Positions 6,294 to 21,116 of a stretch of 24,000 bases of DNA are shown here, piece by piece. Source of the DNA: Polaromonas sp. GTDB lineage: Bacteria > Pseudomonadota > Gammaproteobacteria > Burkholderiales > Burkholderiaceae_C. Where the stretch lies: NCBI GenBank assembly GCA_043754255.1, contig JAYUVG010000167.1:39864-63863 (forward strand), written 5' to 3'. The notes beneath the pieces were generated by a model. That model was not told the origin of the DNA, ran no database searches, and saw only the letters and a list, made by a program, of their open reading frames with translations. The translations under genes were made by a program, and so were the position numbers. The first letter of the stretch is position 1; each line of letters opens with the position of its first letter.

Positions 6294-6531
6294 ATTGGGC
6301 CTGCACGCCAGAGCCTCAGCCAAGCTCACAAAATTAGCGGGCAGCTTTGCCTGCGAAGTGTGGATGGCCAAGGGCGAACGCCGCGTCAACGCCAAAAGCA
6401 TCATGGGCGTGATGATGCTGGCTGCCGGTATGGGCAGCACGGTGATGGTCGAAACCAGCGGCGCGGATGAGCAGGTGGCACTCGATGCGTTGCTGGCTCT
6501 CATCAACGACAAGTTCGGCGAAGGGGAGTGA
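6262..6531 (+). CDS. ptsH: Phosphocarrier protein HPr
   Basis: The internal ATG at 6262 of track ORF 6223-6531 gives the 89-aa MIQTTTTISNKLGLHARASAKLTKLA... The GLHARAS motif contains the His15 equivalent. Confidence 0.9.
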   Translation: MIQTTTTISNKLGLHARASAKLTKLAGSFACEVWMAKGERRVNAKSIMGVMMLAAGMGSTVMVETSGADEQVALDALLALINDKFGEGE

Positions 6532-6532
6532 T

Positions 6533-8317
6533 TTGACATTTTCAGTTCACGGCCTGGCAGTCTCGCGGGGTATTGCGATTGGCCGCGCTGTGCTGGTGGC
6601 GTCCAGCCGGGCTGATGTGGCGCATTACTTTGTGGATGCGGACAAAACCGACCTGGAAATTACCCGTATCAAGGCAGCCCGTAACGCCGTGGTTGAAGAG
6701 ATCACCCGCCTGCAGCGTGATTTGCCCAAGGATGCGCCGCATGAAATTGCCGCGCTGCTGGACGTGCATTTGATGCTGCTACAGGACGACCAGCTGATCA
6801 GTGGTGTCAAGAAGTGGATCACCGAGCGGCGCTACAACGCCGAGTGGGCGCTGACCACCCAGTACGAAACCATTGCCCGCCAGTTTGACGACATGGAAGA
6901 CGAGTACTTGCGTGAACGCAAGGCGGATCTGGAGCAGGTTGTTGAGCGTATTTTGCGCAGCATGAAAGGCATGGCTTCGCCGCTGCAACCGGTGGCTCAG
7001 GCGGGTGCCAGCCGCAAGCAGTCGCAGCAGGATTTTTTGCTGGACGACACGGTTGATGTGCCGCTGGTGCTGATTGCGCATGACATTTCACCGGCTGACA
7101 TGCTGCAGTTCAAAGAAAGCCTGTTTGCCGGGTTTGCCACCGACGTGGGCGGCAAAACGTCGCACACCGCCATCGTGGCGCGCAGTATGGACATCCCGGC
7201 AGTGGTGGGCGCGCGCAGTGCCAGCCAGCTGATTGAGCAGGACGACTGGGTCATCATTGACGGCGATGCCGGCATATTGATTGTGGATCCGTCGCCAATT
7301 ATTCTGGCGGAATACGGCTTCAAGCAGCGCCAGGGCGAGCTGGAGCGTGAGCGTTTGAGCCGCCTTAAACACACCCCGGCCGTCACGCTGGACGACCAGC
7401 GCATTGAGCTGCTGGCCAACATTGAATTGCCAGGCGACACACTGGGCGCCGTCAAGGCCGGCGCAGTGGGTGTGGGCTTGTTTCGCAGTGAGTTTTTGTT
7501 CATGGGCCGCGAATCAAAAGGCGCGGGCAAACTGCCCAACGAGGACGAGCAATACACCGCCTACTGCCAGGCGATTGACGGCATGAAGGGCTTGCCAGTG
7601 ACCATTCGCACGGTGGACATTGGCTCAGACAAAGCACTGGACCGAATGGGTGACCGGATGGAAAAAGCGCAGGACACGCACCTGAACCCGGCCCTTGGCC
7701 TGCGCGCCATTCGCTGGTCACTGGCCGACCCACCGATGTTTTTGACCCAGCTGCGCGCCATTTTGCGGGCTGCAGCACACGGCCAGGTCAACCTGCTGGT
7801 GCCGATGCTGGCGCATTTGAGCGAGATCAAACAAACGCTGCTGCTGATTGACCGTGCGCGGGTACAACTGGACAACCAGGGTGTGCCGTACGGCCCGGTG
7901 CGCCTGGGCGCGATGATTGAAATACCGGCTGCTGCATTGACGCTCAAAACGTTTTTAAAATACTTCGACTTTTTGTCGATCGGCACCAACGATTTGATCC
8001 AGTACACGCTGGCGATTGACCGCGCCGACGAATCAGTTGCCCACCTGTACGACCCGTGCCACCCGGCCGTGTTGCAACTGATTGCTGCCACCATTGCTGA
8101 ATGCAACGCACAAGACAAAGGCGTCAGCATCTGTGGCGAAATGGCCGGTGATGTCGCCATGACCAAGCTGCTGCTGGGAATGGGGCTGCGCAGCTTTTCA
8201 ATGCACCCATCGCAAATACTGGCGGTCAAGCAGCAAATATTGCGATCAGACACCGCCAAGCTCAAACCGTGGGCTGCGCGGGTGCTGGACAGTGAAGATC
8301 CGTCCTCGCTGATTTAA
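6533..8317 (+). CDS. ptsI: Phosphoenolpyruvate-protein phosphotransferase (Enzyme I)
   Basis: The track ORF is 6467-8317. The likely start is TTG at 6533, after AAGGGGA (6521-6527), two nt past the HPr stop. GGKTSHTAIVARS holds the phospho-His loop, and IGTNDLIQYTLAIDR and CGEMAG are PEP-utiliser C-terminal motifs. Confidence 0.92.
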   Translation: MTFSVHGLAVSRGIAIGRAVLVASSRADVAHYFVDADKTDLEITRIKAARNAVVEEITRLQRDLPKDAPHEIAALLDVHLMLLQDDQLISGVKKWITERRYNAEWALTTQYETIARQFDDMEDEYLRERKADLEQVVERILRSMKGMASPLQPVAQAGASRKQSQQDFLLDDTVDVPLVLIAHDISPADMLQFKESLFAGFATDVGGKTSHTAIVARSMDIPAVVGARSASQLIEQDDWVIIDGDAGILIVDPSPIILAEYGFKQRQGELERERLSRLKHTPAVTLDDQRIELLANIELPGDTLGAVKAGAVGVGLFRSEFLFMGRESKGAGKLPNEDEQYTAYCQAIDGMKGLPVTIRTVDIGSDKALDRMGDRMEKAQDTHLNPALGLRAIRWSLADPPMFLTQLRAILRAAAHGQVNLLVPMLAHLSEIKQTLLLIDRARVQLDNQGVPYGPVRLGAMIEIPAAALTLKTFLKYFDFLSIGTNDLIQYTLAIDRADESVAHLYDPCHPAVLQLIAATIAECNAQDKGVSICGEMAGDVAMTKLLLGMGLRSFSMHPSQILAVKQQILRSDTAKLKPWAARVLDSEDPSSLI

Positions 8318-8333
8318 GTCACCTTTTTGTATT

Positions 8334-8395
8334 TGCTATTAAATCAGTAGCTGCTTGCGCTGTATTTACATCGGCTAGAGCACTATTTGGTCAAT
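8334..8395. repeat. Copy 2 of the ~62-bp dispersed repeat
   Basis: TGCTATTAAATCAGTAGCTGCTTGCGCTGTATTTACATCGGCTAGAGCACTATTTGGTCAAT. It starts 17 nt after the ptsI stop. Confidence 0.75.
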
Positions 8396-8422
8396 GACCA
8401 ACAAAGTTCAGTTCAGACTGCC

Positions 8423-8499
8423 GTCATCCTCGCGAAGGCGGGGATCCAGTACCCGAATCTGTTCTTGATCTTCTGGATTCCCGCCTTCGCGGGAATGAC
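8423..8499. repeat. Inverted pair of dRS3-like units
   Basis: GTCATCCTCGCGAAGGCGGGGATCCAG (8423-8449) and CTGGATTCCCGCCTTCGCGGGAATGAC (8474-8499, rc = GTCATTCCCGCGAAGGCGGGAATCCAG) are separated by 24 nt. Track ORF 8387-8581 (..VILAKAGIQ..IPAFAGMTG..) is just their translation. Confidence 0.8.
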
Positions 8500-8536
8500 G
8501 GGATGGATTTTTTGTATTCGTTGCAAGTTTGCAGAT

Positions 8537-8598
8537 TGCTACAAATTCAATAGCTTTTTACCCACGTATTTATTGGGTTAGAGACATTTTTTCTGATG
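8537..8598. repeat. Copy 3 (degenerate) of the ~62-bp dispersed repeat
   Basis: TGCTACAAATTCAATAGCTTTTTACCCACGTATTTATTGGGTTAGAGACATTTTTTCTGATG. The ends are conserved and the centre has diverged. Confidence 0.5.
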
Positions 8599-8600
8599 AA

Positions 8601-9338
8601 TTAATCAAACCCATGCAGCAAGCGGCGTGCATTTTCTGCGCACAGTGCGCGCAGCTCAGCGCTTAATTGAACATCAACGCCAGCTTGCTGCCAATAGTCA
8701 ACAGCCCAACTTCGTGCCAGTCCAGCCTCAGCTGCATAGCCCACGGGTAGCCGGATTTCGCGCAGCGGCGATGGGTCAAGGTTGCCGCTGTGGATGTCGG
8801 GTCGCCACATCATCGGCAGCATGTCGTATACCGGTGCGAGCCGAATTTTCGGCGCATTGACATCGTCCACATAAAACGAGAGATTTCCCGAATGCATATC
8901 GGTGTTGCCGATGTAGTGGCCAAAAGCAAAAATGCAGGCAATTTGCTGCAACTCGTGCGGCGTTATCAAGCCTTTTTGCGCCAGAGCGGCGGCGGTATGC
9001 ACCCAGTTTTGCCAGGGGCCGCCGACAAATTCATCGTGAACGGCGGCAATCGCCACAACGTGATGTTTGTCCTCTATACCGATCCGGTCAAAGCGCAGAG
9101 ATTCCAGATAACTGCGCTGGGTGACGTGCAAGACCTGCGTTGGCGTGGCGTCTACGCCATGTTGAATCAAAGTGCGCAACGCCAACGCCTCAAGTATCAG
9201 CAAATCCCGCCACCTGTCCCCAAAGGGTGTGCCGTGAGGCGGTGTGTGCCTGACGATGCAATGCTCCCGGCTCTGATTGCCTGAGTATTCCGACAGAAAT
9301 TCTGGCTGTTCGCCCCCGGCGCTAGAGCCGGCTGACAA
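8601..9338 (-). CDS. HipA-like Ser/Thr kinase core (YjjJ/HipH-like); possibly frameshift-separated from its N-terminal HTH
   Basis: 245-aa ORF. GGEQPEF is a GxQxK-type loop and GNTDMHSGNLSF is the D-x-H-x-x-N catalytic loop of HipA_C. The only start is TTG at 9338, with no SD. An HTH-like 58-aa ORF ends 17 nt inside it in another frame. Confidence 0.7.
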   Translation of the reverse strand: MSAGSSAGGEQPEFLSEYSGNQSREHCIVRHTPPHGTPFGDRWRDLLILEALALRTLIQHGVDATPTQVLHVTQRSYLESLRFDRIGIEDKHHVVAIAAVHDEFVGGPWQNWVHTAAALAQKGLITPHELQQIACIFAFGHYIGNTDMHSGNLSFYVDDVNAPKIRLAPVYDMLPMMWRPDIHSGNLDPSPLREIRLPVGYAAEAGLARSWAVDYWQQAGVDVQLSAELRALCAENARRLLHGFD

Positions 9339-9498
9339 ACTGTGGCTGGCCTGAACTGCTCTTGTGTCCTATTGGGCCAGTCGCGGGGCCGGACTGGCTT
9401 TTGCCGGTGGCCGCAGCCAATTGTGCAGCCGAGAGCGGCTTGCCTTGCGCCAACAGTGCTGTTTCAGCCTCAGGCAGTTCAAGTTTTGGTTGATTCAT
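9322..9498 (-). CDS. 58-aa HTH-like ORF (candidate detached N-terminus of the HipA-like protein)
   Basis: Below the track size cut-off, so translated by hand: MNQPKLELPEAETALLAQGKPLSAAQLAAATGKSQSGPATGPIGHKSSSGQPQFVSRL*. The patterns ..PLSAAQLAAATG.. and ..QPxxVSRL resemble the HTH that is fused to YjjJ-type HipA kinases. It overlaps the kinase ORF by 17 nt, and the kinase frame is offset by one nucleotide. Confidence 0.35.
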   Translation of the reverse strand: MNQPKLELPEAETALLAQGKPLSAAQLAAATGKSQSGPATGPIGHKSSSGQPQFVSRL

Positions 9499-9531
9499 TC
9501 ATAGATACTTCTTGCCTAAGTACCTGTGAAT

Positions 9532-9556
9532 ATTCAGGAATTTGAAATTCCTGAAT
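9532..9556. promoter_or_regulatory. Perfect 25-bp palindrome, candidate operator
   Basis: ATTCAGGAATTT-G-AAATTCCTGAAT has perfect 12-bp arms. It lies 34 nt upstream of the HTH ORF's ATG and 30 nt downstream of the lipA stop. No T-run follows on the minus strand, so an operator is more likely than a terminator. Confidence 0.5.
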
Positions 9557-9585
9557 AGATAAATTCAGAGATAGTCAACGCACTT

Positions 9586-10572
9586 TCAAATCAATGCCAG
9601 AACACCTTCTGCCTGTTTGTCGGCGTGGTAACTTGACCTGACCATTGCGCCAACTGCCGCATGGGTGAACCCCATTTTGTAAGCCTCGGCCTCAAACATT
9701 TTGAAGGTGTCGGGGTGCACGTAGCGGCGCACGGGTAAATGCGACATGGAGGGGGCTAAATATTGGCCAATTGTCAGCATGTCAATGTCGTGCGCGCGCA
9801 TGTCGCGCATGACTTGCAAAATCTCTTCGTCGGTTTCGCCCAGGCCGACCATGATGCCGCTTTTGGTGGGCACGTTGGGGTGCAGGGCTTTGAATTTTTT
9901 CAAAAGGCTCAGTGAAAACTGGTAGTCGCTGCCGGGGCGCGCTTCTTTGTACAAGCGGGCGGTGGTTTCCAGGTTGTGGTTCATGATGTCGGGCGGCGCA
10001 GCTTTTAAAATTTCAAGCGCACGGTCGTCACGACCCCTGAAGTCGGGCACCAAAATCTCAATGGTGGTGGCGGGCGAGAGTTCGCGGATTTTGCTGATGC
10101 ATTCGACAAAATGCCCGCTGCCGCCATCGCGCAAATCGTCCCGATCCACGCTGGTGATGACCACGTATTTCAGCTTCAGCGCCGCAATGGTTTTGGCCAG
10201 ATTCAGTGGCTCATCAGCATCCAGCGGGTCAGGCCGGCCGTGGCCCACATCGCAAAACGGGCAACGCCGTGTGCATTTGTCGCCCATGATCATGAAGGTC
10301 GCCGTGCCCTTGCCAAAGCATTCGCCGATGTTGGGGCAACTGGCTTCTTCGCACACAGTGTTGAGTTTGTTCTCGCGCAGGATTTGCTTGATTTCGTAAA
10401 ACCGGGTGGTGGGGGAACCTGCCTTGACGCGAATCCAGTCGGGTTTTTTCAGCACTTCGGCGCGCTCGACTTTGACCGGAATACGCGACAGCTTGGCTGC
10501 TGCCTTTTGTTTGGCCAGCGGGTTGTACTCTAGCTGGCTTTGGACTTCTCTGACGACTTCCTGTGTACTCAT
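9586..10572 (-). CDS. lipA: Lipoyl synthase
   Basis: 328 aa. It has the [12 protein letters not shown] auxiliary cluster motif and the [10 protein letters not shown] radical-SAM CxxxCxxC motif. Confidence 0.96.
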
Positions 10573-10584
10573 GGTGGTTTGACT

Positions 10585-11367
10585 TTAGGGTGCAAGGTAG
10601 CTGACAAGCTTTTGACTGAAGACATCAGCAGCCTCTTGCCAGCCCACTGAAACACCGATTGTACGAAGGTCAACCGTTTGCAAACCCGCGTAGCCGCAGG
10701 GGTTGATGCGCGAGAAGGGTTCCAGGTCCATCGCCACATTCAGCGCCACGCCGTGGTAGGTGCAGTGGCGGCTGACCTTGATGCCGAGGGCGGCGATTTT
10801 GCCGAGGCCGGCAAATGCGGGGTCAGCGAAATTGGGGTCAGAGCCACTTCGCTTCGCTACGGGATCCGACCCCAATTTCGCGGTGCGGGGAGGGGGCAGC
10901 ATGGCATGAGAAAACGGATCATCCAGCCGCACATAAATCCCTGGCGCGCCACGTACCCGATGCCCTGTCACGCCAAAATGCGCCAGCGTGCGAATCACTG
11001 CTTCTTCCACCCGATACACGTATTCTTTAACGTAATAGCCCGCCGCTTTCAAGTCAACCAGCGGATACGCCACAACCTGCCCCGGCCCATGAAACGTCAC
11101 CTGCCCACCCCGGTCGGTTTGCACAATCGGGATGTTGCCGGGGTTTAAAACGTGTTCAGTCTTGCCTGCCAGGCCCTGCGTAAAAACCGCTGGGTGCTCA
11201 CAAATCCATAGCTGGTTGCGCGCATTCTGTGCTGGCTGGAGGTCGATTTGACCATTATTTTGATCTGTTTTGGTGCTTCTGGCGGCGGTGTACGCCTGCA
11301 TGGCGGCCCATGTTGGCAGGTACTCGACTTGCCCGAGCTGGCGGACTTCCATGAACGGCTCGTTCAC
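10585..11367 (-). CDS. lipB: Octanoyltransferase LipB, with an internal repeat-derived insertion
   Basis: Contains [45 protein letters not shown] and INPCGY. The start is either GTG at 11367 (overlapping the res TGA as GTGA) or ATG at 11352 ([11 protein letters not shown]...). Confidence 0.9.
10826..10881. repeat. Palindromic element inside lipB (in frame)
   Basis: GCGAAATTGGGGTC (10826-10839) and GACCCCAATTTCGC (10868-10881) are perfect 14-bp inverted arms. GGGGTCAG occurs twice (10818-10825 and 10834-10841). In LipB the element is translated as ..[20 protein letters not shown].. Confidence 0.7.
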
Positions 11368-14054
11368 CCCAACAGCCTGTCAAGTTGCCCAGACATGCCC
11401 ACGCCATCGTGGTCTTTGATGATCTGCCCAAACACACATTTGCCGCCGCTTTTGGCCGCCCACAACTCGCCAATTTGCCGCTTTTCAATCTCAAGTGGAA
11501 TATTGAGTAATTGCGCGCCTTTGTACTCAACGACGGCAATGCGCCCGTCTGTCAGCTCCGCTACAAAGTCCGGAAAAAACCGCCCGCGCGATGTGGCCAG
11601 TGCAAAGCCGCAAGGCTGCGTGACCAGATTGCGCACCCAGTGTTTGACAGAGTGGTGTTTGTCCAGCAGTTGCGCGCACAAAAACTCTTCGCCGTCGTCT
11701 TTCAGGTCAGCCAGCACCGGGTAGAAGTGTCTGTTGAACTGGTAGCGGCCTGCGTAACGCCCGCCAGCAGGCACCGGGTAGCGATTCGCCTCAAACAAAA
11801 GCGGGCGCGTCCAGTCGGGCTCAATCGTCCACTCGCCTTCAAGCACAAGCTGGCGAAATTGCGCTTTGGCGGCTTTGTCTTTCAGGTCGCCGACCCGTGC
11901 CTCAATGTCTTGAGCCAATTTGAATCGCGCTTTGACCAGGGTTGCCAGCGGCACGCCGCGCTCATGCATCAGGTGGCTGACGACGGCTGCAAAGTAGCTG
12001 CTGCGCTGGCCTTGCGTCAAATCGGGTAGCTTTTGAAACAGCGACTGGTCCAGCCAGCGCACCAAATCTTGCGCGGTGATGGTGGTGGAGCCATAGTCAA
12101 ACGCGATCTGGCTGGCGTCCGCCGCGCGCAGATTGACTTTGCTGTCTTTTAAATAAATCTCAAACGTATTGGACTGCTCCACCACCTGAAAGCCTGGCAA
12201 TGCAATCGCATCTGGGCTAAGTAAATCCAGCTCGACAGCTTCAAGCACCGCCTCACGCTCCAGCGGCCACAACTGGCCCTGCGGTGTGCTGCGGTAGCCC
12301 AGCGTGGGCACGGGCGCAAAGCGCGCACCGCGCGATGCGGGCGCGGCCTGGGCGGCAACCAGCGCGTTGTGCTGCGCGACTTTGGCAACGACCAGCTCCT
12401 GCTTTTTGGCACCGCGCACCTGCGCCACCAACAGCGCTTCCAGCTCCAGACTGATGTGGCCGGTGACGACGAGGTTTTGCTCACCGGCAATTTGCATGAC
12501 TTCAACACCAGCGGCATGGCGCAACTCCTCTGACGGCGCAGGTGCTATAAAATTAGTAGCTGTTTGCGCAGTATTTATGTCGGCTAGAGGCTCATTTGAT
12601 GTATAAAACTGATCGAAAAGGGGCAAATTGGACTGCTGCACCACCATCGACGCCACATCCAGCGCCTCAAAACCCATGTTGTTGATGAGCCTGTCGGCCA
12701 GCTCATGCGCAGCGGTTGAAAACTTGGCCTCGCAGACGTGTGCATATGCGCGATTGAGCGCTTCCCGCCCACGCGGGCTGGCATACGGCATGCGTAGCAC
12801 GCGGCCCAGCAGCTGCTCCACCGCAGTCGCGCTTGACAGCTTTTGCAGCGAACACAGCACGTAGGCAAACGGGCAGTCCCAGCCTTCACGCAGCGCCTGC
12901 ACCGTAATCACAAAGCGCACCGGGCAGTCGCGGGACGACAAGTCCAGCCCCTCCAGCTCGCGCGTGTCGCCGGTGGCTACTTTGATCTGCTCAGGCGGTA
13001 TGTGCAGTTCGTCCTGCAGATGTTTGCGCAATGCCTCGGGCGGCACCTCATCGTTTTCGTTCTGGGCCTGAAACAGCACAATTGGCCGGACGTAGCCATT
13101 GCCTGCCGCTTCATCCTTCAACGCTTCGCTTTCCAGCGCGCGCTGGCTTTGTACCGCGGCAAACACCGCCTGCTGCCAGCCCTGCGGGTGCTCGGCCAGC
13201 GCAATCGGCAGCTTGATCATGCTTTCCGCCGCCAGCTCCTGCGCGCTGACGTGGTACAGCACATTGGTTTTGCCCGGGATGGGCGTAGCCGTCAGTTCCA
13301 AAATGGCGCTGGGGTTCAGGCGCTTCAGGGCGGTAAAGCTTTTGTCGGTTTTGGTGTTGTGCGCCTCGTCAACAATCAGCAGCGGCTCATGCAGTGCCAG
13401 CCAGTTGGCCAAGCTCCAGCGCGGCTGGTTGATGAAACCTGCCAGCACGCCGGTCTTGTCATGGGTTGCTTCATCAGGCGTGACCAACGCATCCGGCAAG
13501 CCGTGCAGCACCCGCAAACGCTGTTCATCACAGCCCTTGAAGTGCCGCTCAAAGCTTTCAGAAAAGCTGTACACATTGCGCTTGTCGGTGTCGTCCACCC
13601 GAAAGCTCTGAATGGTGGCTACCACCACCACGGCACGCTGGCCCCAGTCTGGCGGGGCAATATTTGCCAAATCCTCCAGCACACACACCCGCACGCCGCT
13701 GCCGTAGCTGGCCTCCAGCGCCTCACGGTACGGGTGGCCAGCGGTTTGCAGCGCTTTAAGCGTCTGGCTGCGAATCGTGTCACTCGGCACCAGCCACACC
13801 GCCACCGGCGCATCGGTAGCGCGCCATTCCTGCGCCAACACATTCACAGCATGCGCCGCCATCAGCGTTTTGCCGCCGCCGGTGGGGATGCGCAGGCAAA
13901 TGCACGGCACCTGGCCAAAAGGGTCAGCGTTGTAAGGCCGCCCCACCGCTTCGCCAAAAGCCATGGCCGCGCCTTTTAACTGGGCTGACCGGGCAAATGC
14001 CCGCAGCGCGTCTAGCGCGGCTTGCTGGTAGGACTTGAGGGTAAGGGTGGTCAT
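11364..14054 (-). CDS. res: Type III restriction enzyme Res subunit (SF2 helicase plus PD-(D/E)xK nuclease)
   Basis: 896 aa. The helicase motifs are [21 protein letters not shown] and [10 protein letters not shown]. The C-terminal [17 protein letters not shown] is a PD..ExK nuclease motif. Confidence 0.9.
12543..12606. repeat. Copy 4 of the ~62-bp dispersed repeat, in frame inside res
   Basis: TGCTATAAAATTAGTAGCTGTTTGCGCAGTATTTATGTCGGCTAGAGGCTCATTTGATGTATAA. By my hand alignment 47 of the first 58 nt match copy 2. The rc is translated within Res as ..[21 protein letters not shown].. Confidence 0.75.
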
Positions 14055-14059
14055 TTGTT

Positions 14060-14088
14060 TTGCAGAACAGTGGTTTACGGATTAAAAT
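14060..14088 (+). promoter_or_regulatory. Sigma70-like promoter motif P1 (antisense to the operon)
   Basis: TTGCAG (14060-14065) - 17 nt - TAAAAT (14083-14088). It is 23/29 identical to the motif at 14260-14288. The -35 box lies 6 nt from the res start codon, on the opposite strand. Confidence 0.35.
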
Positions 14089-14259
14089 GCTGGTGTGGGA
14101 ACAAAAATCGGCTTCATGCCGTGAGAATGCAAAGCGCAGGTAACTGGGTAGCGCACTCCTATATTCCCACCCCTTTTCTATTTTGTCTCCGCAGCTTCCG
14201 TCCCACACCAGGCGACTAGAGCCAAAATGTCGTGGATGCTGCGGGGCCTCTTCTCTACT

Positions 14260-14288
14260 TTGCTAAATATTGCTTTACCGATTAAAAT
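14260..14288 (+). promoter_or_regulatory. Sigma70-like promoter motif P2 (antisense to the operon)
   Basis: TTGCTA (14260-14265) - 17 nt - TAAAAT (14283-14288). It lies exactly 200 bp downstream of P1 and shares the core TTTACnGATTAAAAT. Confidence 0.35.
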
Positions 14289-14295
14289 CTATTCT

Positions 14296-14372
14296 CACCC
14301 GCGAAGTCGTTTCGGACGTTAAGAGAAGGGGGCGAAAGCCAGCATGCACTCGTCGCGGGTGTACTTTTTATT
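14296..14372 (+). ncRNA. Candidate small structured RNA downstream of P2 (hypothetical)
   Basis: The 9-bp perfect stem CACCCGCGA (14296-14304) / TCGCGGGTG (14353-14361) starts about 7 nt after the P2 -10 box. It encloses GGC-GAAA-GCC (14331-14340) and is followed by TACTTTTTATT. There is no ORF with an RBS. This rests on sequence shape only, with no transcript evidence. Confidence 0.22.
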
Positions 14373-14387
14373 CAGGCACATCATTAT

Positions 14388-14933
14388 TCAGGCGCTCCAG
14401 GCGCCTTTTTTCTTGCGTAATGAATCCGTGGCAACCAGTTTGTGCTTGCCCCGAATTTCTTCAATGTGTCGGTAGCCTATGCCGTCAATCACTTTCACAA
14501 ATACGATCACGTTGCGGCCAATCTTGTTTTTGCCGTCTGCAAATACATTGTCTGGCTCTGACGTAATCACCAGGATTTTTTCAAAATCTTCCAATGTGAC
14601 AGCGATCTGACCGCGTTGGCTCTCTTGCTTGGCGTTGCCGTGCTGTTTGATGGTGTGGCGCACGCCGTAGTTGTCAAGAACGCGGGTGAACCCGGTCACA
14701 TCCAGCCCTGTTTTTTGCAGGATGAGTGGCGCGTTATCAACGTGGCCCAACGATACAAACGTTCGCCTGTCTGCAATCTGCATGGCTTGTTGTGCAAATT
14801 GGGTAATCGTCTCTTTAATGGAGTTGTCTTTGCTATGACCAGTTTCTTTTTTATTCTGCATGGGTTCAAATTTTTGGGTCGATGATTTGAATGTATCGGC
14901 CAATTGCCGACACCATGCGATAAATCGACACAC
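14388..14933 (-). CDS. Unknown protein between mod and res; candidate nuclease/toxin-like domain
   Basis: The track ORF is 181 aa from GTG at 14933. The first ATG at 14861 gives 157 aa (MQNKKETGHSKDN...). Neither start has a clear SD. It contains GVRHTIKQHGNAKQESQRGQIAVTLEDFEKI. The region is visibly more AT-rich than res or the 5' part of mod. Confidence 0.6.
   Translation of the reverse strand: MCRFIAWCRQLADTFKSSTQKFEPMQNKKETGHSKDNSIKETITQFAQQAMQIADRRTFVSLGHVDNAPLILQKTGLDVTGFTRVLDNYGVRHTIKQHGNAKQESQRGQIAVTLEDFEKILVITSEPDNVFADGKNKIGRNVIVFVKVIDGIGYRHIEEIRGKHKLVATDSLRKKKGAWSA
14390..14411 (+). terminator. Intrinsic-terminator-like hairpin on the + strand
   Basis: A-GGCGC-TCCAG-GCGCC-TTTTTT: a 5-6 bp GC stem followed by T6. 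It lies inside the last 8 codons of the minus-strand ORF, so it fits only a + strand (antisense) transcript. Confidence 0.4.
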
Positions 14934-14941
14934 CTGCGCTA

Positions 14942-16732
14942 CTACCGCCCCTTCACGTCATACGGTATGTGCTTGAACGTCACGTTCGCCTGCTTCAGGC
15001 GCTCTGCGCCCAGGCGGCAGGCTTCGCCGTAGACGAGTAGCGGGGCTTGGGGTTCTGGGGTGGTAGCGTGGAGGGCTAGCAGGGCTGCAAGCACATCGCG
15101 GGTGAGGACGTTGCCGCTGGCGGGGCGTTTGTCGCCTAATATGCCGTTGTAGAGCAGATAGCAGGCGAATTTGGGTGTTTTTATATGCTCAATCTGGCTG
15201 TAGCCGACATGATCAGCGCGCAAGCAGCTATTAATTTCATAGTACGTGCCCAGGTACGGCGTGCCGGGTTTGGCAGATGTTGCATCGAAGGACGCGCCGG
15301 TTTCTTGCTGCCAGACGAAGGCAGCCAGGGTTGCAAAGCGCACGGCCGGGTTGATGCGGCCTTGCTCGTCAAACACCGCCTCACCCAGCCGCATGAACCT
15401 GAAGCCGCCGCCGTGAAATGGCTCGCCGTTTCTTCCAGCTCCCCAGCCCACGGCTTTGCTGATGCCGCCTTGTTCGCCGTCGATGACTTTTTGCAGGCGC
15501 GGGGCGCAGTGGGTGGCGGCGTGTTCGCCCATTTCAATGCCGATCCAGCGGCGGCGCATTTTGTGGGCGACGGCGGCAGTGGTGCCTGAGCCGAGGAAGG
15601 AGTCGAGGATGAGGTCGTTTTCGTTGGTGGCTATGTGGAGGATGCGCTGAATCAGGCGCTCTGGTTTTGGGGTGTCAAAAGCATCACCTGCACCAAACAG
15701 TTCATTGATTTCTTTTTTAGCCTCCTGGTTGTGCCCAACTTCAGCGTTTGACCACCAGCTCCAGGAGTTTTGGCCTTCCATTTCACTCAAATAGCGCTTT
15801 AGTCGTGGCCTGGCGGTTCCATCTTTGCCAAACCAAACCCGATTTTCGGCAATTAGCTTCAAAAAGGTTGATTCTGCAAGAGCCCAGCATCTACCTGCGG
15901 GCGGCGCATGTGCGGTTCCGTTTGGCGCGATGACTGTGTAAAACTGGCTCGGAGTAGCATGGCCTGTCATGCCAGTGAAGTCTGTCGATGCCCAGGCACC
16001 ACGCGGGTCAGCGTCTGGATTTTTAAAGTCTTTTGCGCGTTCCTGGTTGATTTGTAGTTGATTAAAGTTTTCTTTCAAGGAATTATTTTTCTTGAAAACC
16101 AGGATGTGATCATGAGCGTCACCCAGTCGCAATCTGTTGTCTGTGGAGGTACGTTTTTGCCAAACGACATTCGCAACAAAATTCCCCCGCCCAAACACCT
16201 CATCCATCAACACCTTGAGGTAATGGCCTTCGTTGTCGTCAATCGTCACCCAGATGCTGCCGTCTTCCCGCAGCAGCTCGCGCAGCAGTTGCAGGCGCGG
16301 CAGCATCATGCTGAGCCACTGGGCATGTTCGAGGTTGTCGTCGTAGTGCTCAAACGCGCTTTTGGTGTTGTAGGGCGGGTCAATGAAGATGCATTTGACC
16401 TGGCCGCGGTAAAAGGGGAGCAGGGCTTTGAGGGCTTCGAGGTTGTCGCCCTGGATTAGGAGGTTGTCTTGGGTGGTGGGTGGAGAAGGGGTGCGGGGAG
16501 AGCCCTGTCTTGCAGACCGCTGGTCAGTCAGAGCCTGACCTTCTTCACGCTGTCCAGAAGCGCTCAAGCGCTCCTGGAGCCGCAGCGTGAAGCCCCCGCC
16601 CTCTCCCAGAGGGAGAGGGAGTTTGACGCCTGGGAAGGGAACATGTACAGACACCTGCTCCAGCAGCCGGTATGGCACGCGGGCAGAGGCGGTGAAGGCG
16701 CTTTGGCGGTTGAGCCAGTCTAAGGTGGGCAT
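14942..16732 (-). CDS. mod: Type III R-M DNA methyltransferase Mod (beta-class N6-adenine/N4-cytosine MTase)
   Basis: 596 aa. IFIDPPYNT (motif IV) precedes DSFLGSGTTAAVA (motif I), which is the beta-class order, with a TRD-sized region between them. The N-terminus PTLDWLNRQ...VPYRLL...NLLIQGDNLEALKAL is typical of Mod. Confidence 0.9.
   Translation of the reverse strand: MPTLDWLNRQSAFTASARVPYRLLEQVSVHVPFPGVKLPLPLGEGGGFTLRLQERLSASGQREEGQALTDQRSARQGSPRTPSPPTTQDNLLIQGDNLEALKALLPFYRGQVKCIFIDPPYNTKSAFEHYDDNLEHAQWLSMMLPRLQLLRELLREDGSIWVTIDDNEGHYLKVLMDEVFGRGNFVANVVWQKRTSTDNRLRLGDAHDHILVFKKNNSLKENFNQLQINQERAKDFKNPDADPRGAWASTDFTGMTGHATPSQFYTVIAPNGTAHAPPAGRCWALAESTFLKLIAENRVWFGKDGTARPRLKRYLSEMEGQNSWSWWSNAEVGHNQEAKKEINELFGAGDAFDTPKPERLIQRILHIATNENDLILDSFLGSGTTAAVAHKMRRRWIGIEMGEHAATHCAPRLQKVIDGEQGGISKAVGWGAGRNGEPFHGGGFRFMRLGEAVFDEQGRINPAVRFATLAAFVWQQETGASFDATSAKPGTPYLGTYYEINSCLRADHVGYSQIEHIKTPKFACYLLYNGILGDKRPASGNVLTRDVLAALLALHATTPEPQAPLLVYGEACRLGAERLKQANVTFKHIPYDVKGR
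16599..16619. repeat. Perfect palindrome CCCTCTCCC-AGA-GGGAGAGGG inside mod
   Basis: Translated as LPLPLGEG within a low-complexity stretch of about 57 aa (nt 16472-16642). It is accompanied by GGTCAG-N7-CTGACC (16532-16550). Confidence 0.6.
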
Positions 16733-16742
16733 GTGGTGTTAT

Positions 16743-17942
16743 TCAGGATGCAGCAAAGTTGGCCTCAACCGTCTCACGGTGAAACAGTTCAAGGTAAGGC
16801 TGGTAGCGGTACAGGCGGTTGCGGTCAAAGCCGGTGACTTCTTGCAGCCAGCCGCGCGCCTCCAGGTCTTTGGCCAACTTGACGGCGGTGGGGTGGGTGC
16901 AGCCGACGATTTCAGCAATCTGTTTGGGCGACACCAGCGGCTGCTTGAACAGGCTGTCGAGCAACTTCAATGCTTTGGGGCTTTTGATCAGCGCGGCCCG
17001 GTGTGCTTCGCGCATGGCGACGATGTCAGTTGCCGTGCGGGTTGCAGCCCGCGCCGTTTGACTGATGCCACGCAAGAAAAACTTCAGCCACGGCTCCCAC
17101 TGGCCATGCTCGCGGATGGCGGTCAAGCGGTCATAGTATTCAGCGCGGTGAGCTTTTAAAAACACAGACAGGTACAAAACAGGGCGCGACAAGGCTTGCT
17201 CTTCACACAGCATCAAGGTGATGAGCAACCTGCCCACGCGGCCATTGCCATCCAGAAATGGGTGAATGGTTTCAAACTGCGCATGCGCCAAGCCGCAACG
17301 TATCAGCAGCGGTGTGTCGGCTTTGCCGTTGTGCATGAACAGCTCAAGCGCGCCCAGGCTTGCCAACAGCTCATGCGGCGGTGGCGGAATGAAGCTGGCA
17401 GTTGACAAGCTGCTGCCAGTACCGCCTATCCAGTTTTGTGAGGTGCGGAATTCGCCTGGCGATCCAATGTGTGCTTTGTCGGACCCGCGCACGTTTTGCA
17501 TCAACTCGCCATGAATTTCTTGCAGCATTCGCAGGCTGAGTGGCAACTCATTGAGCCGACGCAAGCCGTGGTTCATGGCGCGGACGTAATTGATGACCTC
17601 TTCAACATCCTTTGGGCTGTCGTTGTGTGTGCCTTGTGCTTCAAATGCCAGGATGTCTTCCAGCGTGCTTTGCGTGCCCTCAATTTGCGAGGACAGCACG
17701 GCTTCGTGGCGCACATACATGCCTATAAACAAGTCGGGGTTGGGCAGCAAGGTGGCAATCGCATCCAGCCTGGCCAGGTCGCGGTCTGCTTGCGACAGCA
17801 GGGTTCTCAGCTCTCCCTCGAAATCAATGTCTGGGTCGGGCGGCAACGGCGCTGGAATGAATGCGCGGTAACCGGTTAACTGCTGAACATAACGGCCAGC
17901 ACGGTGGGGATGAAGTGCTCTGTCAGGTGGTAAAACTTTCAT
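16743..17942 (-). CDS. Fic-domain protein (class II-like: N-terminal inhibitory helix, Fic core, C-terminal wHTH)
   Basis: 399 aa. HPFLDGNGRVGR matches HxFx(D/E)GNGRxxR. SSQIEG matches the (S/T)xxxE(G/N) auto-inhibition motif upstream of the core. The C-terminal ..IAEIVGCTHPTAVKLAKDLEARGWLQEV.. is wHTH-like. The stop lies 10 nt before the mod ATG. Confidence 0.9.
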   Translation of the reverse strand: MKVLPPDRALHPHRAGRYVQQLTGYRAFIPAPLPPDPDIDFEGELRTLLSQADRDLARLDAIATLLPNPDLFIGMYVRHEAVLSSQIEGTQSTLEDILAFEAQGTHNDSPKDVEEVINYVRAMNHGLRRLNELPLSLRMLQEIHGELMQNVRGSDKAHIGSPGEFRTSQNWIGGTGSSLSTASFIPPPPHELLASLGALELFMHNGKADTPLLIRCGLAHAQFETIHPFLDGNGRVGRLLITLMLCEEQALSRPVLYLSVFLKAHRAEYYDRLTAIREHGQWEPWLKFFLRGISQTARAATRTATDIVAMREAHRAALIKSPKALKLLDSLFKQPLVSPKQIAEIVGCTHPTAVKLAKDLEARGWLQEVTGFDRNRLYRYQPYLELFHRETVEANFAAS

Positions 17943-17960
17943 AAGAACCGTTGATGGTAT

Positions 17961-18027
17961 TCATATGAAAATAAAAGTCAAATAATTTTTATATGAGATA
18001 CGCGAAAAATTTATATGCAAATTTGCA
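17961..18027. promoter_or_regulatory. AT-rich control region upstream of the Fic operon with palindromes
   Basis: TCATATGAAAAT (17961-17972) is 11/12 complementary to ATTTTTATATGA (17985-17996). T(C/T)ATATG occurs three times. TGCAAATTTGCA (18016-18027) is a perfect 12-bp palindrome. On the minus strand TTGACT lies about 45 nt upstream of the Fic ATG. Confidence 0.35.
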
Positions 18028-18230
18028 GAATGTCCACCGTTTTAAACTTTACAGATGCCTGCCGGGATCAGTCCGGATTGATTTTGGCGCGCACTACAAC
18101 CACTTTCTAGCGCGCCTGCTCTGCCGCAATAAAGGCAGCCTACTGGGCCGGCGTGTCACCTACGGCTGCGCCATGTCACCACGCAAACGCTCGGTGGCAG
18201 TCAAATTTTTCATGGCCTTTGGCAGGCATC

Positions 18231-18295
18231 TGCTACTTTTTCAATAGCTGTTTGCGCCGTGTTTACGGGCGCATTCAGGCCATATTATTGGGTCA
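18231..18295. repeat. Copy 5 of the ~62-bp dispersed repeat
   Basis: TGCTACTTTTTCAATAGCTGTTTGCGCCGTGTTTACGGGCGCATTCAGGCCATATTATTGGGTC. Its centre forms the hairpin GCGCCGT-GTTT-ACGGGCGC. Confidence 0.65.
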
Positions 18296-18432
18296 TTCGT
18301 GAGTTGGCTAAGACAATAAACTCGGCAAGGTTTTTGGCAGGCACTTCGGCAGTGACCACGTATTGGCTTGGCCCTGTTCGAAATTCAGTTTGGATGACTG
18401 TGCAACGAGGCTTTTAATGATGTGCGCTAAAA

Positions 18433-18457
18433 TGTACAAAACAACCTGATTTGTACA
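18433..18457. promoter_or_regulatory. Inverted repeat overlapping the antitoxin 5' end (candidate TA operator)
   Basis: TGTACAAA (18433-18440) - 9 nt - TTTGTACA (18450-18457). It lies just after a TAAAAT box (18428-18433) and just before the ATG at 18460. Confidence 0.45.
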
Positions 18458-18459
18458 AA

Positions 18460-18729
18460 ATGCACCCTTCTTCTGTTCACTCTCCCATCACCATCGCATT
18501 GAGCGAGTTCCGCGCCAACACATCGGCCATGATTGACCGGGTCGAAAAGGGCGAGACCGTGCGCATTTTGCGGCATGGCAAGCCGGTGGCCGAGCTGGTG
18601 CCCATGCAGCCACAAGCAGAGCAAAAAGTGCCGCGCTGGAAGGTGCCGATTGAGCCCTTGCACATCGTCAGGCCAGATGGCAAAACAGGTGCGCAGTTGA
18701 TCATTGAAGAGCGCGAGTTGGGCTGGTAA
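18460..18729 (+). CDS. Phd/YefM-type antitoxin
   Basis: The track ORF begins at TTG 18451; the ATG at 18460 is more likely. ..ITIALSEFRANTSAMIDRVEKGETVRILRHGKPVAELVP.. is the classic Phd/YefM N-terminal pattern. The stop TAA overlaps the toxin ATG (TAATG). Confidence 0.8.
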   Translation: MHPSSVHSPITIALSEFRANTSAMIDRVEKGETVRILRHGKPVAELVPMQPQAEQKVPRWKVPIEPLHIVRPDGKTGAQLIIEERELGW

Positions 18730-19148
18730 TGCGGGTACTGATGGATACCTCAGCACTTTACAAGCGCTATAACCGCGAGGCGGGGCGAGACCAGTTGTTG
18801 GCTGTCAGCGAGCGTGCCAGCGAATTAGTGATTGCGGGACATTGCAAAGCAGAAATTGCATCGGCGCTGAATCGCCAGCGTCACGATGGTCTTGCTACTG
18901 AAGAGGACTATTCAAGAATCATGGCCGTGGTCACTACAGACTTTGATGGTTTTGTTCTGATTGCGCTTGATGCGAGGGTTGAGGCCTATGCCATAGCCGC
19001 CATGGAAGTCAGTCGGCTCAGAGCGATGGACGCGCTTCATATCGGCACTGCCAAAGCAGCTTATGTTGATTTATTTGTGACAGCTGACAAACGTCAAGCG
19101 GCGGCGGCTCGGGCAGTTGGTTTGAAAACCGAACTCATAGAGGCTTGA
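18729..19148 (+). CDS. vapC: PIN-domain toxin (VapC-like)
   Basis: 139 aa. The acidic residues sit in PIN positions: MRVLMDTSAL (D6), ..AEIASAL.., ..AMDALHIGTA.. and ..LFVTADKRQ.. The stop TGA (19146-19148) is immediately followed by the mnmG ATG. Confidence 0.85.
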   Translation: MRVLMDTSALYKRYNREAGRDQLLAVSERASELVIAGHCKAEIASALNRQRHDGLATEEDYSRIMAVVTTDFDGFVLIALDARVEAYAIAAMEVSRLRAMDALHIGTAKAAYVDLFVTADKRQAAAARAVGLKTELIEA

Positions 19149-21116
19149 ATGTTTTACCCTACTGAATTTGATGTAATTGTTGTTGGCGGTGGCCATGCGG
19201 GCACAGAGGCCGCGCTGGCCAGCGCGCGCATGGGTTGCAAAACTTTGCTGCTGACACACAACATTGAAACCCTAGGCCAGATGAGCTGCAACCCGTCGAT
19301 TGGCGGCATTGGCAAGGGGCATCTGGTCAAGGAAGTTGACGCCATGGGCGGCGCGATGGCGCTGGCTACGGATGAGGCGGGTATTCAATTTCGTATTTTG
19401 AACAGCTCCAAGGGCCCGGCAGTGCGCGCTACCCGGGCACAGGCTGACCGTATTTTGTACAAGGCCGCGATTCGGCGGATGCTGGAAAACCAGCCAAATC
19501 TGTGGTTGTTTCAGCAGGCAGTGGATGACTTGATGGTTGAATCGGATGGTGTGGGTGACAGGGTAGTTGGTGCAGTCACGCAGGTGGGCATCAAGTTTAA
19601 AAGCCGCACAGTGGTGCTGACAGCCGGGACTTTCTTGGACGGCAAAATTCACGTCGGGCTGCAAAACTATGCAGCGGGCAGGGCAGGCGACCCGCCCGCG
19701 GTGTCGTTAAGTGCAAGGCTGAAAGAGCTGCAACTGCCGCAAGGCCGCCTGAAAACTGGCACACCGCCGCGCATCGACGGCCGCACGATTGACTTCAGCA
19801 AGTGCATTGCACAGCCTGGCGATGGCATGCCAGGTGGTGTGGCAGGCGATGTACCCGTGTTCAGTTTTATGGGCAGTGCAATTGCCCACCCTTGCCAAGT
19901 GCCGTGCTACATCACCCACACCAACGCGCGCACGCACGACATCATTCGCAGCGGCTTTGACCGCAGCCCCATGTTTACCGGCAAGATTGATGGTGTAGGC
20001 CCGCGCTATTGTCCGAGTGTGGAAGACAAGATCAACCGCTTTGCGGACAAGGATGCGCACCAGATTTTTCTGGAGCCCGAGGGGTTAACCACCCACGAGA
20101 TTTACCCCAACGGCATCTCGACCAGCCTGCCGTTTGACATTCAGTATGACCTGGTGCGTTCAATGGTCGGGATGGAAAACGCCCACATTTTGCGGCCAGG
20201 CTATGCGATTGAATACGACTACTTTGACCCGCGCGCGTTAAAAACCAGCTTTGAAACCCGGGCTATAAACGGCCTCTTTTTTGCCGGGCAGATCAATGGC
20301 ACCACTGGTTATGAAGAGGCGGCGGCGCAAGGCATGTTTGCGGGCATCAATGCCGCACTGCAATGCCAAGGCAAAGAGGTTTGGCTGCCCAAGCGCGATG
20401 AAGCGTACCTGGGCGTGCTGGTTGATGACCTGATTACCAAAGGCGTGACCGAGCCGTACCGCATGTTTACCAGCCGGGCAGAGTACCGGCTAATGCTGCG
20501 TGAAGACAATGCCGACATGCGCTTGAGTGAAAAGGGCAGGGAGCTGGGCCTGGTGGATGATGCGCGATGGAACGCTTTCAACCGCAAACGCGATGCTGTT
20601 TCACGTGAAACACAGCGGTTGCGTGGCATTTGGGTGAATCCAAACAATTTACCACCGGCTGAGGCTGAGCGCGTGCTGGGCAAAGCGATTGAACGGGAAT
20701 ACAACCTGGCTGATTTGCTGCGCAGGCCGGATGTGAACTACGCCGGGCTGATGAGCATGGACGGCGGAAAATATCAGGCACATGAAGCTACGCAATTCAT
20801 GGACAAAAGCGTGATTGAGCAGATTGAAATCACAGCCAAATACGCTGGCTACATCGACCTGCAAAAAGTTGAGGTGGAGCGTGCGGCGCATTACGAAAAT
20901 CTGAAACTGCCGCCTGAACTGGACTACTTGCAGGTTCAGGCGTTGAGCTTTGAGGCCCGCCAAACACTGGCCAAGCATCGCCCTGAAACATTGGGTTTGG
21001 CGTCACGCATCTCAGGTATTACGCCTGCCACGGTATCGCTGCTGCTGGTGCATTTGAAGAAGAATTTGTGGAAGAACACAACGCCGCTTCAGGTAGCAGA
21101 AAAAATTGACGCATGA
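19149..21116 (+). CDS. mnmG: tRNA uridine 5-carboxymethylaminomethyl modification enzyme MnmG (GidA)
   Basis: 655 aa. [23 protein letters not shown] is the FAD-binding motif, with ..[21 protein letters not shown]..-type sequence downstream and the family-wide C-terminal domain. Confidence 0.97.
20597..20612. other. Perfect consensus parS centromere-like site inside mnmG
   Basis: TGTTTCACGTGAAACA matches the 16-bp palindromic chromosomal ParB-binding consensus at 16/16 positions. It is translated as ..AVSRET.. Confidence 0.8.

Follow-up and report, generated by a model that had tools for sequence, protein, structure and literature searches.

A covarying structured RNA linked to the predicted RNase PBECR3, and its setting in a type III restriction-modification locus of Polaromonas

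The locus and its genes

The DNA analysed here (the window, 24,000 nucleotides of a Polaromonas sp. contig) carries a type III restriction-modification (R-M) locus in which a gene for a predicted RNase, PBECR3, lies between mod and res. Directly 3' of PBECR3, and on the opposite strand, lies what appears to be the gene of a small structured RNA. That such an RNA exists and is linked to PBECR3 is, in our view, close to certain; that it acts as the antidote of PBECR3 is the reading we favour, with a probability of about 0.55. The argument concerns the following features.

11364-14054, minus strand: Res, restriction subunit of a type III R-M system, with a superfamily 2 (SF2) helicase and a C-terminal PD-(D/E)xK nuclease (ResIII, PADLOC REase_III)
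14388-14861, minus strand: PBECR3, predicted RNase of 157 aa from the ATG at 14861, with an alternative GTG start at 14933 (Pfam PF18812)
14388-14933, minus strand: the long frame of the same small open reading frame (ORF), from the GTG (ORF list)
14942-16732, minus strand: Mod, type III R-M methyltransferase (N6_N4_Mtase, PADLOC MTase_III)
16743-17942, minus strand: Fic, class II AMPylase and probable SoFic-type defence protein; Fic_N and Fic domains, then a C-terminal tail resembling a winged helix-turn-helix (wHTH) (Pfam, PADLOC)
14260-14288, plus strand: sigma-70-like promoter, TTGCTA, 17 nt, TAAAAT (promoter scan)
14294-14363, plus strand: core of the PBECR3-associated structured RNA, about 70 nt, four helices (covariance model R1, RNAalifold)
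14296-14304 with 14353-14361, plus strand: P1, the 9-bp closing helix of the RNA (alignment, RNAalifold)
14362-14413, plus strand: two terminator-like ends of the RNA (terminator scan)
14362-14373, plus strand: first terminator-like end, a U-run directly after P1 (terminator scan)
14390-14406, plus strand: second terminator-like end, a hairpin and T-run within the last PBECR3 codons and stop (terminator scan)

As the initial annotation of this DNA had described, the ORF list holds four co-directional genes on the minus strand in the order Fic, Mod, small ORF and Res. The gaps measure 10 nt between Fic and Mod, 8 nt from Mod to the GTG frame and 333 nt from the small ORF to Res. The 887-bp wedge that splits mod from res is AT-richer, again as annotated, with a GC content of 0.47-0.51 over positions 14000-15000 versus 0.58-0.64 in res and mod. 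All the motifs quoted at that stage are present in the translations (HPFLDGNGRVGR, SSQIEG, DPPY before FLGSGTT, and PD...EYK), and profile searches confirmed the Fic, Fic_N, N6_N4_Mtase and ResIII domains. PADLOC matched SoFic, MTase_III and REase_III, with no model for PBECR3. The domain searches thus uphold the description of a type III R-M system with two extra toxin-like genes. Two labels have to be revised: the 'unknown ORF' matches Pfam PBECR3 at 1e-18, and the spacer before res, which indeed holds no protein ORF, is not empty, as the structured RNA gene sits in it at 14294-14363 (+).

The small ORF encodes a PBECR3 protein

Translation of the small ORF most likely begins with the ATG at 14861; the resulting 157-aa product is identical (100%) to the database protein P0001. 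It matches Pfam PF18812 with an E-value of 1.3e-18 and 67.4 bits, against a gathering cutoff of 30. The homologues recovered numbered 81, at 54-100% identity, and a profile search put the size of the PBECR3 family at 2,399 cluster representatives at 50% identity (E<=0.001). Eight residues are invariant in the distant PBECR3 members (H69, K72, H74, E80, R83, G84, Q85 and D92); H69 falls within a predicted helix (64-74), and the T145/S147 region retains a Ser or Thr in these members. For PBECR domains, Iyer et al. 2017 described an active site made of a His in the core N-terminal helix and a Ser/Thr near the C terminus (PMC5512222), and the pattern of invariant residues fits this description. 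The AlphaFold2 model has a confidence (pLDDT) of 88. PBECR3 is a predicted metal-independent endoRNase of the BECR fold, with a putative RNase activity and a putative toxicity.

A conserved structured RNA follows PBECR3

Across the fetched loci, the spacers between PBECR3 and res range from 114 to 354 nt. When aligned, they contain a block of about 70 nt, directly 3' of the PBECR3 stop, that is about 95% identical versus about 70% for the flanking proteins. The same block follows PBECR3 in loci without any R-M genes. A DNA-pattern scan of viral and metagenome contigs brought the collection to 31 distinct copies; 6 of the 20 metagenome pattern matches were chance matches lacking the rest of the element.

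The block folds into four helices: the 9-bp closing helix P1, a 4-bp hairpin P2, a variable hairpin P3 that is mostly capped by a GNRA loop, and a 3-bp helix P4. The RNAalifold consensus is identical to the structure drawn by eye. In the alignment of close relatives, 95.7% of the cells are paired and 11 of the 19 pairs show double changes, a level reached by 0 of 500 shuffles, while slid controls gave 26-46% pairing. The covariance model R1 was built from this alignment, and R2 from divergent hits. Searched against the window, R1 returned a single match, at 14294-14363 (+), with 96.4 bits and an E-value of 5e-25. Among 26 divergent copies, 91% of the cells are paired and 16 of 19 pairs carry double changes; the covariation score of this set was 0.464, versus 0.131 in shuffles and at most 0.129 in slid controls, although fitting this alignment to the model biases it towards the structure. 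Conservation is highest in the hairpin P2 and the purine tract GAGAGAAGG, and it is the unpaired segments that are the most invariant, across phyla.

Rfam 15 gave no matches at E<=1 over positions 11000-19000, and a search with the 401-nt spacer gave isrK as its best hit, at 18.8 bits versus a gathering score of 50 and over the terminator part only. Hammerhead-type cores and integron attC cores, compared by eye on both strands, did not fit. We also discarded the idea that the spacer, or the RNA strand, encodes a small peptide: spacer lengths vary by non-multiples of 3, and the only ATG (within GCAUGC) is ACG in several loci. Neither the RNA family nor its link to PBECR3 was found in Rfam 15 or in the literature searched.

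Predicted strand, promoter and terminators of the RNA

The RNA is probably transcribed from the plus strand of the window, opposite to and convergent with PBECR3. Of 31 loci, 19 have a sigma-70-like -35/-10 pair whose end lies 4-12 nt 5' of P1, versus 1.6+-1.2 (maximum 5) after shuffling. At the other end, a U-run follows P1 in many loci. Further on, the second terminator has its hairpin within the final ~10 codons of PBECR3, and this hairpin covaries (GGCGC/GCGCC to GGAGC/GCTCC) despite the resulting change in the C terminus of the protein; 83.9% of the hairpin cells are paired, with 17 double-change cells and 0 of 500 shuffles reaching this level. In the AT-rich locus L028, an unrelated canonical terminator, an AT-rich hairpin followed by U7, stands at the same place. 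The pairing itself has a polarity. The fourth P2 pair (U18.G22), U.G in 25 copies and C-G in the other 6 of the 31, can form only on the plus strand, and the counts of G.U versus A.C pairs are 32:7 and 35:10, largely from this one pair. The P3 loops, similarly, are GNRA only when read opposite PBECR3. The predicted RNA gene would be about 75-120 nt long, with its own promoter and a terminator overlapping the 3' end of PBECR3.

The same observations bear on whether the element works as DNA, that is, as a site of recombination or attachment through which the cassette would move, in the manner of an integron attC folded as single-stranded DNA. It does stand directly after the cassette ORF, as attC does, the cassette is clearly mobile, and covarying helices would form in single-stranded DNA too. 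Such a site is nevertheless hardly credible here: the element consists of four helices with invariant junctions and not of one long imperfect hairpin, no RYYYAAC/GTTRRRY core sites were seen by eye, and no integrase or transposase accompanies the cassette. Moreover, the promoter and terminators are conserved in one orientation, and the GNRA loops and the U.G to C-G exchange in P2 are features of the RNA type.

The RNA travels with PBECR3

All 16 distinct protein-seeded loci with an intact PBECR3 carry the RNA. In viral contigs, PBECR3 is found as the C-terminal domain (the toxin position) of Phage_Mu_F proteins beside Mu-type portals, and the RNA follows it there as well. A broader viral scan covered 61 loci, and with both R1 and R2 the RNA was found at the expected place and strand in 33 of the 34 viral loci L057-L090. 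For PBECR3 homologues at 32-41% identity, the best match of the covariance model again lies directly 3' of PBECR3 on the opposite strand; these divergent loci include Burkholderia phage phiE131, where PBECR3 is fused to the portal, Rhizobium phage RHph_N28_2, where it is a solo gene between the portal and the major head genes, and an Azospirillum plasmid. The dependence appears to run in one direction. The RNA is intact where PBECR3 has decayed (L017 and L018) and occurs alone where PBECR3 is absent (L033, L040, L044 and L045), while no intact PBECR3 of this subfamily without the RNA was found among the loci examined.

Outside R-M loci, solo cassettes of PBECR3 and RNA sit among housekeeping genes, next to sulfite reductase (L006) or fumarase (L007), and others adjoin toxin-antitoxin (TA) genes (MqsA, YafQ/RelB and HigBA-like). 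PBECR3 and its RNA are thus a two-part mobile cassette shared by bacterial chromosomes and Mu-like phages.

Several loci carry more than one copy of the RNA or of the cassette. A second, weaker RNA copy lies near the first in some of them (L033, 448-492; L034, 587-646), and L044, which lacks PBECR3 and was the only two-copy locus in the R1 search, has its copies in opposite orientation, at 652-723 (-) and 872-940 (+). In three related metagenome assemblies (L003, L004 and L005, at about 6370-10650) we found three copies of a block that ends in PBECR3 and the RNA, each following genes for unannotated proteins of 300 to ~900 aa. L003 and L005 also encode a PBECR1 protein nearby, and L004 has a Mu portal together with a MuF-PBECR2 gene; YafQ follows these blocks, with RelB in two of the three. 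This arrangement suggests a larger mobile unit.

Because the element stands exactly between mod and res, with its promoter directed against the operon, it could also be viewed as a cis-regulator, an antisense or attenuator element that sets or delays res relative to mod when the system enters a new host. In type III systems, Res must stay low until the genome is methylated, and in the short-spacer loci res begins only 45-60 nt beyond the element. However, the covariance model found no RNA in the mod-res loci without PBECR3 (L047-L053, including the plasmid relatives), and the possibility that the RNA is tied to res instead of PBECR3 was discarded on this ground. The element is thus missing from sister loci with the same Mod and Res and other cargo, and it accompanies PBECR3 in phages and in solo loci without res. 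We consider this regulatory role very unlikely.

The mod-res junction is a cargo slot

Mod matches PF01555 (N6_N4_Mtase) at 1e-49 and PADLOC MTase_III at 1e-176, over model positions 33-541 of 542. Its motif order, with FIDPPYN (motif IV, DPPY) preceding DSFLGSGTT (motif I, FxGxG), is the beta-class N6A/N4C layout. Res matches ResIII at 3e-14 and PADLOC REase_III at 5.5e-206, over model positions 3-891 of 898, and its translation carries the SF2 helicase motifs as well as PD...EYK. Mod and Res are, as far as these models predict, a full-length type III R-M pair. The gene order and orientation of type III systems of the EcoP1I/EcoP15I kind are kept in the window, but the adjacency of mod and res is not, as the two genes lie 887 bp apart. 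The point made in the initial annotation that canonical relatives have mod and res side by side is borne out by the plasmid homologues (40-46% Res identity), whose mod-res gaps are 9-15 nt and which carry neither Fic nor PBECR3.

The relatives found belong to Rhodoferax, Polaromonas and other Comamonadaceae. Close chromosomal relatives from sister Comamonadaceae (78-93% Res identity) share the position of the locus between DUF493 and lipB-lipA and differ in what the two variable slots contain. In L050-L053, the slot between mod and res (about 5130-6860) holds a gene of ~565 aa with Schlafen/AlbA_2 (SLFN_AlbA_2) and HATPase_c_4 domains; prokaryotic Schlafen proteins are RNases (PMC13462974). 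In L017 (5857-7940), it holds the two-gene candidate system HEC-01A/B together with a decayed PBECR3 and an intact RNA; tblastn ruled out that this insert is the AlbA_2 gene. Upstream of mod, the slot holds Fic (the window, L001, L011, L017 and L050), a UPF0149/SEC-C protein (L051) or nothing (L052 and L053), and the gene spacing is tight regardless of the occupant. The mod-res junction in this Comamonadaceae lineage is therefore a cargo slot, or hot spot, with at least three different inserts.

Two further loci at the same lipB position are instructive. In L011 (7366-9237) and L014 (6889-7212), large internal deletions have cut mod and res to end fragments, and PBECR3 and the RNA are intact; so is Fic in L011. 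Conversely, the R-M genes survive in L017 despite the decayed PBECR3.

The initial annotation suggested that the locus forms one composite module. In its fullest form, this view makes Fic, Mod, PBECR3, the spacer and Res interdependent, with the wHTH of Fic as a controller similar to a C protein, or with the R-M enzyme restraining the effectors and setting them free once restriction is inhibited, in the style of EcoprrI and PrrC. The genes are co-directional with gaps of 8-13 nt, and the order Fic-Mod recurs in L001, L011, L017 and L050. Unrelated cargo (PBECR3, Schlafen/AlbA_2-HATPase_c_4 and HEC-01A/B) has entered the same slot, and two of these inserts, PBECR3 and the Schlafen-type protein, are predicted to be RNases, a hint of a shared functional theme; PrrC provides a precedent (PMC1484252). 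Nevertheless, intact Mod-Res pairs exist without Fic (L052 and L053) or with the SEC-C protein in its place (L051), the tight spacing holds for any occupant, the plasmid homologues of Mod-Res form an adjacent pair, and SoFic is published as a single-protein defence (PMC12249575). In addition, PBECR3 and the RNA persist in L011 and L014, and Fic in L011, despite the large mod and res deletions, and the cassette is common with no R-M genes nearby. We therefore regard an integrated operon as distinctly unlikely: since both slots vary, PBECR3 and the RNA occur without R-M, and R-M outlives PBECR3, the four parts are not one obligate system. The locus is a case of embedded defence within a type III R-M system and not an obligate four-part machine.

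Fic probably belongs to the SoFic defence family

The first gene of the operon matches Pfam Fic_N (8e-31) and Fic (2e-19), with weak MarR/IclR helix-turn-helix matches at residues 316-376, and covers PADLOC SoFic at 2e-120 over model positions 5-360 of 361. SoFic is a single-protein abortive-infection defence against phages (PMC12249575; bioRxiv 10.1101/2022.05.11.491447). Like SoFic, the Fic protein of the window is of class II, carries the N-terminal inhibitory helix motif (SSQIEG, of the (S/T)xxxE(G/N) type), the catalytic motif HPFLDGNGRVGR (of the HPFx(D/E)GN(G/K)R type) and a C-terminal domain. It matches the PADLOC SoFic model over the full length, but differs in scoring 171 bits against NF046030, the NCBIfam equivalog of Shewanella SoFic, which is below the cutoff of 550, and in that no AS1-like 47-aa ORF follows it, because mod starts 10 nt downstream. 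The proposal that the wHTH of Fic controls the R-M genes finds no support, because the intact Mod-Res loci L052 and L053 lack Fic. An abortive-infection role for the two extra genes, also suggested earlier, is plausible for both, SoFic being a published defence of this type (PMC12249575).

An insertion in the spacer and a second conserved block

The spacer of the window is lengthened by an insertion, with the following features.

14089-14258, no strand assigned: 170-nt insertion in the spacer (alignment to short-spacer loci)
14059-14088 and 14259-14288, no strand assigned: 30-nt direct repeats flanking the insertion, 80% identical (sequence comparison)
14092-14172, minus strand: second conserved, foldable block in the insertion (shared with L001 and L013)

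The insertion is absent from the short-spacer loci L008-L011. In both the window and L001 (10602-10831) the repeats are spaced exactly 200 nt start to start, and the duplicated target differs: in the window it is the promoter region of the RNA, in L001 the initial 30 nt of res, whose ORF the second repeat copy restores. A target duplication of 30 nt is unusual. Within the second block, the closing stem is compensatory (GTGGGAA/TTCCCAC versus GTGAGGA/TCCTCAC), and the consensus fold is -30.3 kcal/mol on the res-sense strand versus -17.3 kcal/mol on the other, both values coming from three sequences only; several G.U pairs also lie on the res-sense strand. The block has no Rfam match and could be a leader element of res.

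Genes around the island

Downstream, the res stop overlaps the start frame of lipB at 11364-11367 (GTGA in the window), and lipA comes next. The overlap is also present in relatives (L050, 9700-9703; L051, 9676-9679), and given that it is kept, the R-M genes may be partly co-transcribed with the housekeeping lipB-lipA pair. The window ORF at 8601-9338 (-), which adjoins lipA, has HipA_C as its sole domain (E 5e-18) and may be a shortened HipA kinase toxin, to judge by its appearance; in the L050 locus, a full HipA_C gene is present further downstream. Upstream of the island, the other strand carries a Phd/PIN pair along with mnmG, rsmG and parA. The pair consists of a Phd/YefM antitoxin and a PIN (VapC) toxin at 18451-19149, directly upstream of mnmG, with the VapC stop (19148) abutting the mnmG start (19149). 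It stands where the island of the relatives is flanked by DUF493 and aminotransferase genes.

Discussion

We propose that the region is a chromosomal defence island of a Comamonadaceae-type betaproteobacterium, in which a type III R-M frame just upstream of lipB-lipA offers two variable slots, one upstream of mod, here taken by SoFic, and one between mod and res, here taken by the cassette of PBECR3 and the small RNA. In the reading that we favour, the RNA would be the antidote of PBECR3, either as an antitoxin or as an immunity factor. Most likely it would bind PBECR3 directly as a pseudo-substrate, as in type III TA systems; in addition, it could possibly pair with the 3' end of the PBECR3 mRNA in type I fashion. 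Direct action on the protein is favoured because the unpaired junctions are invariant across phyla, and because translational silencing would be counter-productive for an essential MuF fusion. An infecting phage that halts transcription in its host would thereby deplete the unstable RNA, and PBECR3, once free, would arrest the cell as a second line of defence after restriction. In Mu-like phages, where PBECR3 is fused to MuF or portal proteins and would be packaged and injected, the RNA would shield the cell that produces the phage or carries it as a lysogen. The toxicity of PBECR3, its neutralisation by the RNA and the anti-phage role of the cassette are each putative.

Alternatively, the RNA could be a partner of PBECR3 without being its antidote: a substrate, a guide or activator, or a decoy, for example a phage RNA that titrates a host factor. 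Such a partner would show the same close linkage and conservation. The tract GAGAGAAGG is similar to the Shine-Dalgarno-type sites at which RegB, a phage RNase of the BECR fold, cleaves; Iyer et al. discussed RegB as a precedent and proposed that PBECR domains target specific host RNAs (PMC5512222). However, orphan RNAs are kept and no intact PBECR3 was found without the RNA, which is the signature of an antidote and not of a substrate. A guide would be expected to have a variable targeting segment, yet the unpaired segments are the most invariant. In addition, the solo cassettes among housekeeping or TA genes behave in a TA-like way, as addiction modules would. We find a non-antidote partner unlikely, though worth keeping in mind beside the antidote reading.

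Several points weigh against an antidote and against its underlying assumptions. We infer the transcription of the RNA from the plus strand, and if U18.G22 and the two outermost P1 pairs are left out, the ratios of G.U to A.C shrink to 6:2 and 10:4. Few of the most distant PBECR3 relatives (27-33% identity) gave a match to the covariance model. Foldseek found no solved structure resembling the PBECR3 model (best E 0.68), and the RNase function of PBECR domains was itself predicted by Iyer et al. from sequence alone (PMC5512222). PBECR3 has no family in the PADLOC, NCBIfam or PHROGs libraries, and as PADLOC and PHROGs have no model for it, its role in defence rests on context. A conserved RNA beside a nuclease could equally be a substrate, a guide or an activator, and a small immunity ORF may exist downstream of the phage fusions. 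Finally, the arrangement of this RNA (single copy, downstream and convergent) differs from every described type of RNA antitoxin.

One close arrangement is that of type I TA systems with convergent antisense RNAs overlapping at the 3' end, such as TxpA/RatA and BsrG/SR4. As in these, the RNA gene runs towards the toxin gene, with a predicted promoter of its own, of constitutive type, and a predicted 3' end that would overlap that of the toxin gene. Most type I toxins are small membrane peptides, with SymE/SymR and RalR/RalA as nuclease-toxin exceptions, and type I RNAs act purely by base-pairing; we know of none in which the unpaired junctions are conserved across phyla. In contrast, the candidate toxin here is a 157-aa soluble nuclease-type domain and not a small hydrophobic peptide. 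Judging by the terminator, the RNA would stop within the final PBECR3 codons; in L028, it would overlap ~10 nt or less of the coding sequence.

The type III TA systems (ToxIN, CptIN and TenpIN) also place a protein endoRNase beside the gene of a small structured non-coding RNA, the proposed neutraliser; here too the two are co-inherited. Type III systems occur on mobile DNA and in defence islands, and abortive infection sets in once their labile RNA decays (PMC8860590, PMC12283969). Their RNAs, however, are tandem 34-36-nt repeats, encoded on the toxin strand ahead of the toxin gene, separated from it by a terminator and processed by the toxin, while here a single ~70-nt multi-helix RNA, without tandem repeats, lies downstream and convergent with its own promoter. 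No match of PBECR3 to the known type III toxin families was seen, in that no PADLOC model was hit.

A third comparison is with the MuF polymorphic toxins and polyvalent proteins (PMC5576092, PMC5512222). PBECR3 occupies their C-terminal toxin position, solo versions exist, and a cognate protective gene is expected immediately downstream; indeed, in most cases Jamet et al. found the MuF toxin gene followed by a small ORF, presumed to confer immunity (PMC5576092). Small proteins are the immunity factors described, whereas the conserved element downstream of PBECR3 is an RNA gene on the opposite strand. An RNA partner of PBECR3 is mentioned neither by Jamet et al. (PMC5576092) nor by Iyer et al. 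(PMC5512222). It is tempting to speculate that this is a new kind of toxin-RNA immunity pair, in which one RNA of complex fold neutralises a phage-injected RNase and which bacteria have captured as an abortive-infection cassette and placed within a type III R-M locus. In this reading, lysogens would be immune through the RNA and not through an immunity protein. We put this broader proposal forward only tentatively and think it rather doubtful as a whole.

The initial annotation knew of no described system with this architecture, but precedents exist in PrrC inside the EcoprrI hsd genes and in the concept of embedded defence. The PrrC anticodon nuclease is nested in the EcoprrI type Ic R-M locus as a back-up for when restriction is defeated (PMC1484252; bioRxiv 10.1101/2024.01.29.577857). 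The likeness is an RNase effector gene nested between R-M genes. PrrC, in contrast, is an ABC-ATPase-nuclease fusion, is silenced by an R-M protein and is almost always linked to R-M genes, while PBECR3 has its own RNA partner and is mostly found without R-M, and the host system here is of type III and not of type I. The embedding study describes, as 'guilt by embedding', extra genes nested in Hma, BREX, DISARM and type I R-M systems (bioRxiv 10.1101/2024.01.29.577857). Interchangeable cargo between defence genes is what we see as well, and L017 carries HEC-01A/B, a cargo defined in that study. A term search of the same study found neither type III R-M hosts nor PBECR3 (bioRxiv 10.1101/2024.01.29.577857).

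The gene set of this locus thus combines known kinds of system, namely embedded defence and RNA-protein toxin pairs, and the apparently new part is the RNA family and its link to PBECR3. The locus extends the idea of embedded defence to type III R-M systems, and the mod-res junction could be mined for more defence genes. The RNA represents a new structured family absent from Rfam and possibly a new RNA-antitoxin architecture. Because PBECR domains are widespread, both as solo genes and inside giant polyvalent phage proteins, a conserved and covarying RNA partner is a concrete and testable handle on their function and control. Moreover, such a partner predicts how the cells and phages that make PBECR3 would avoid harming themselves.

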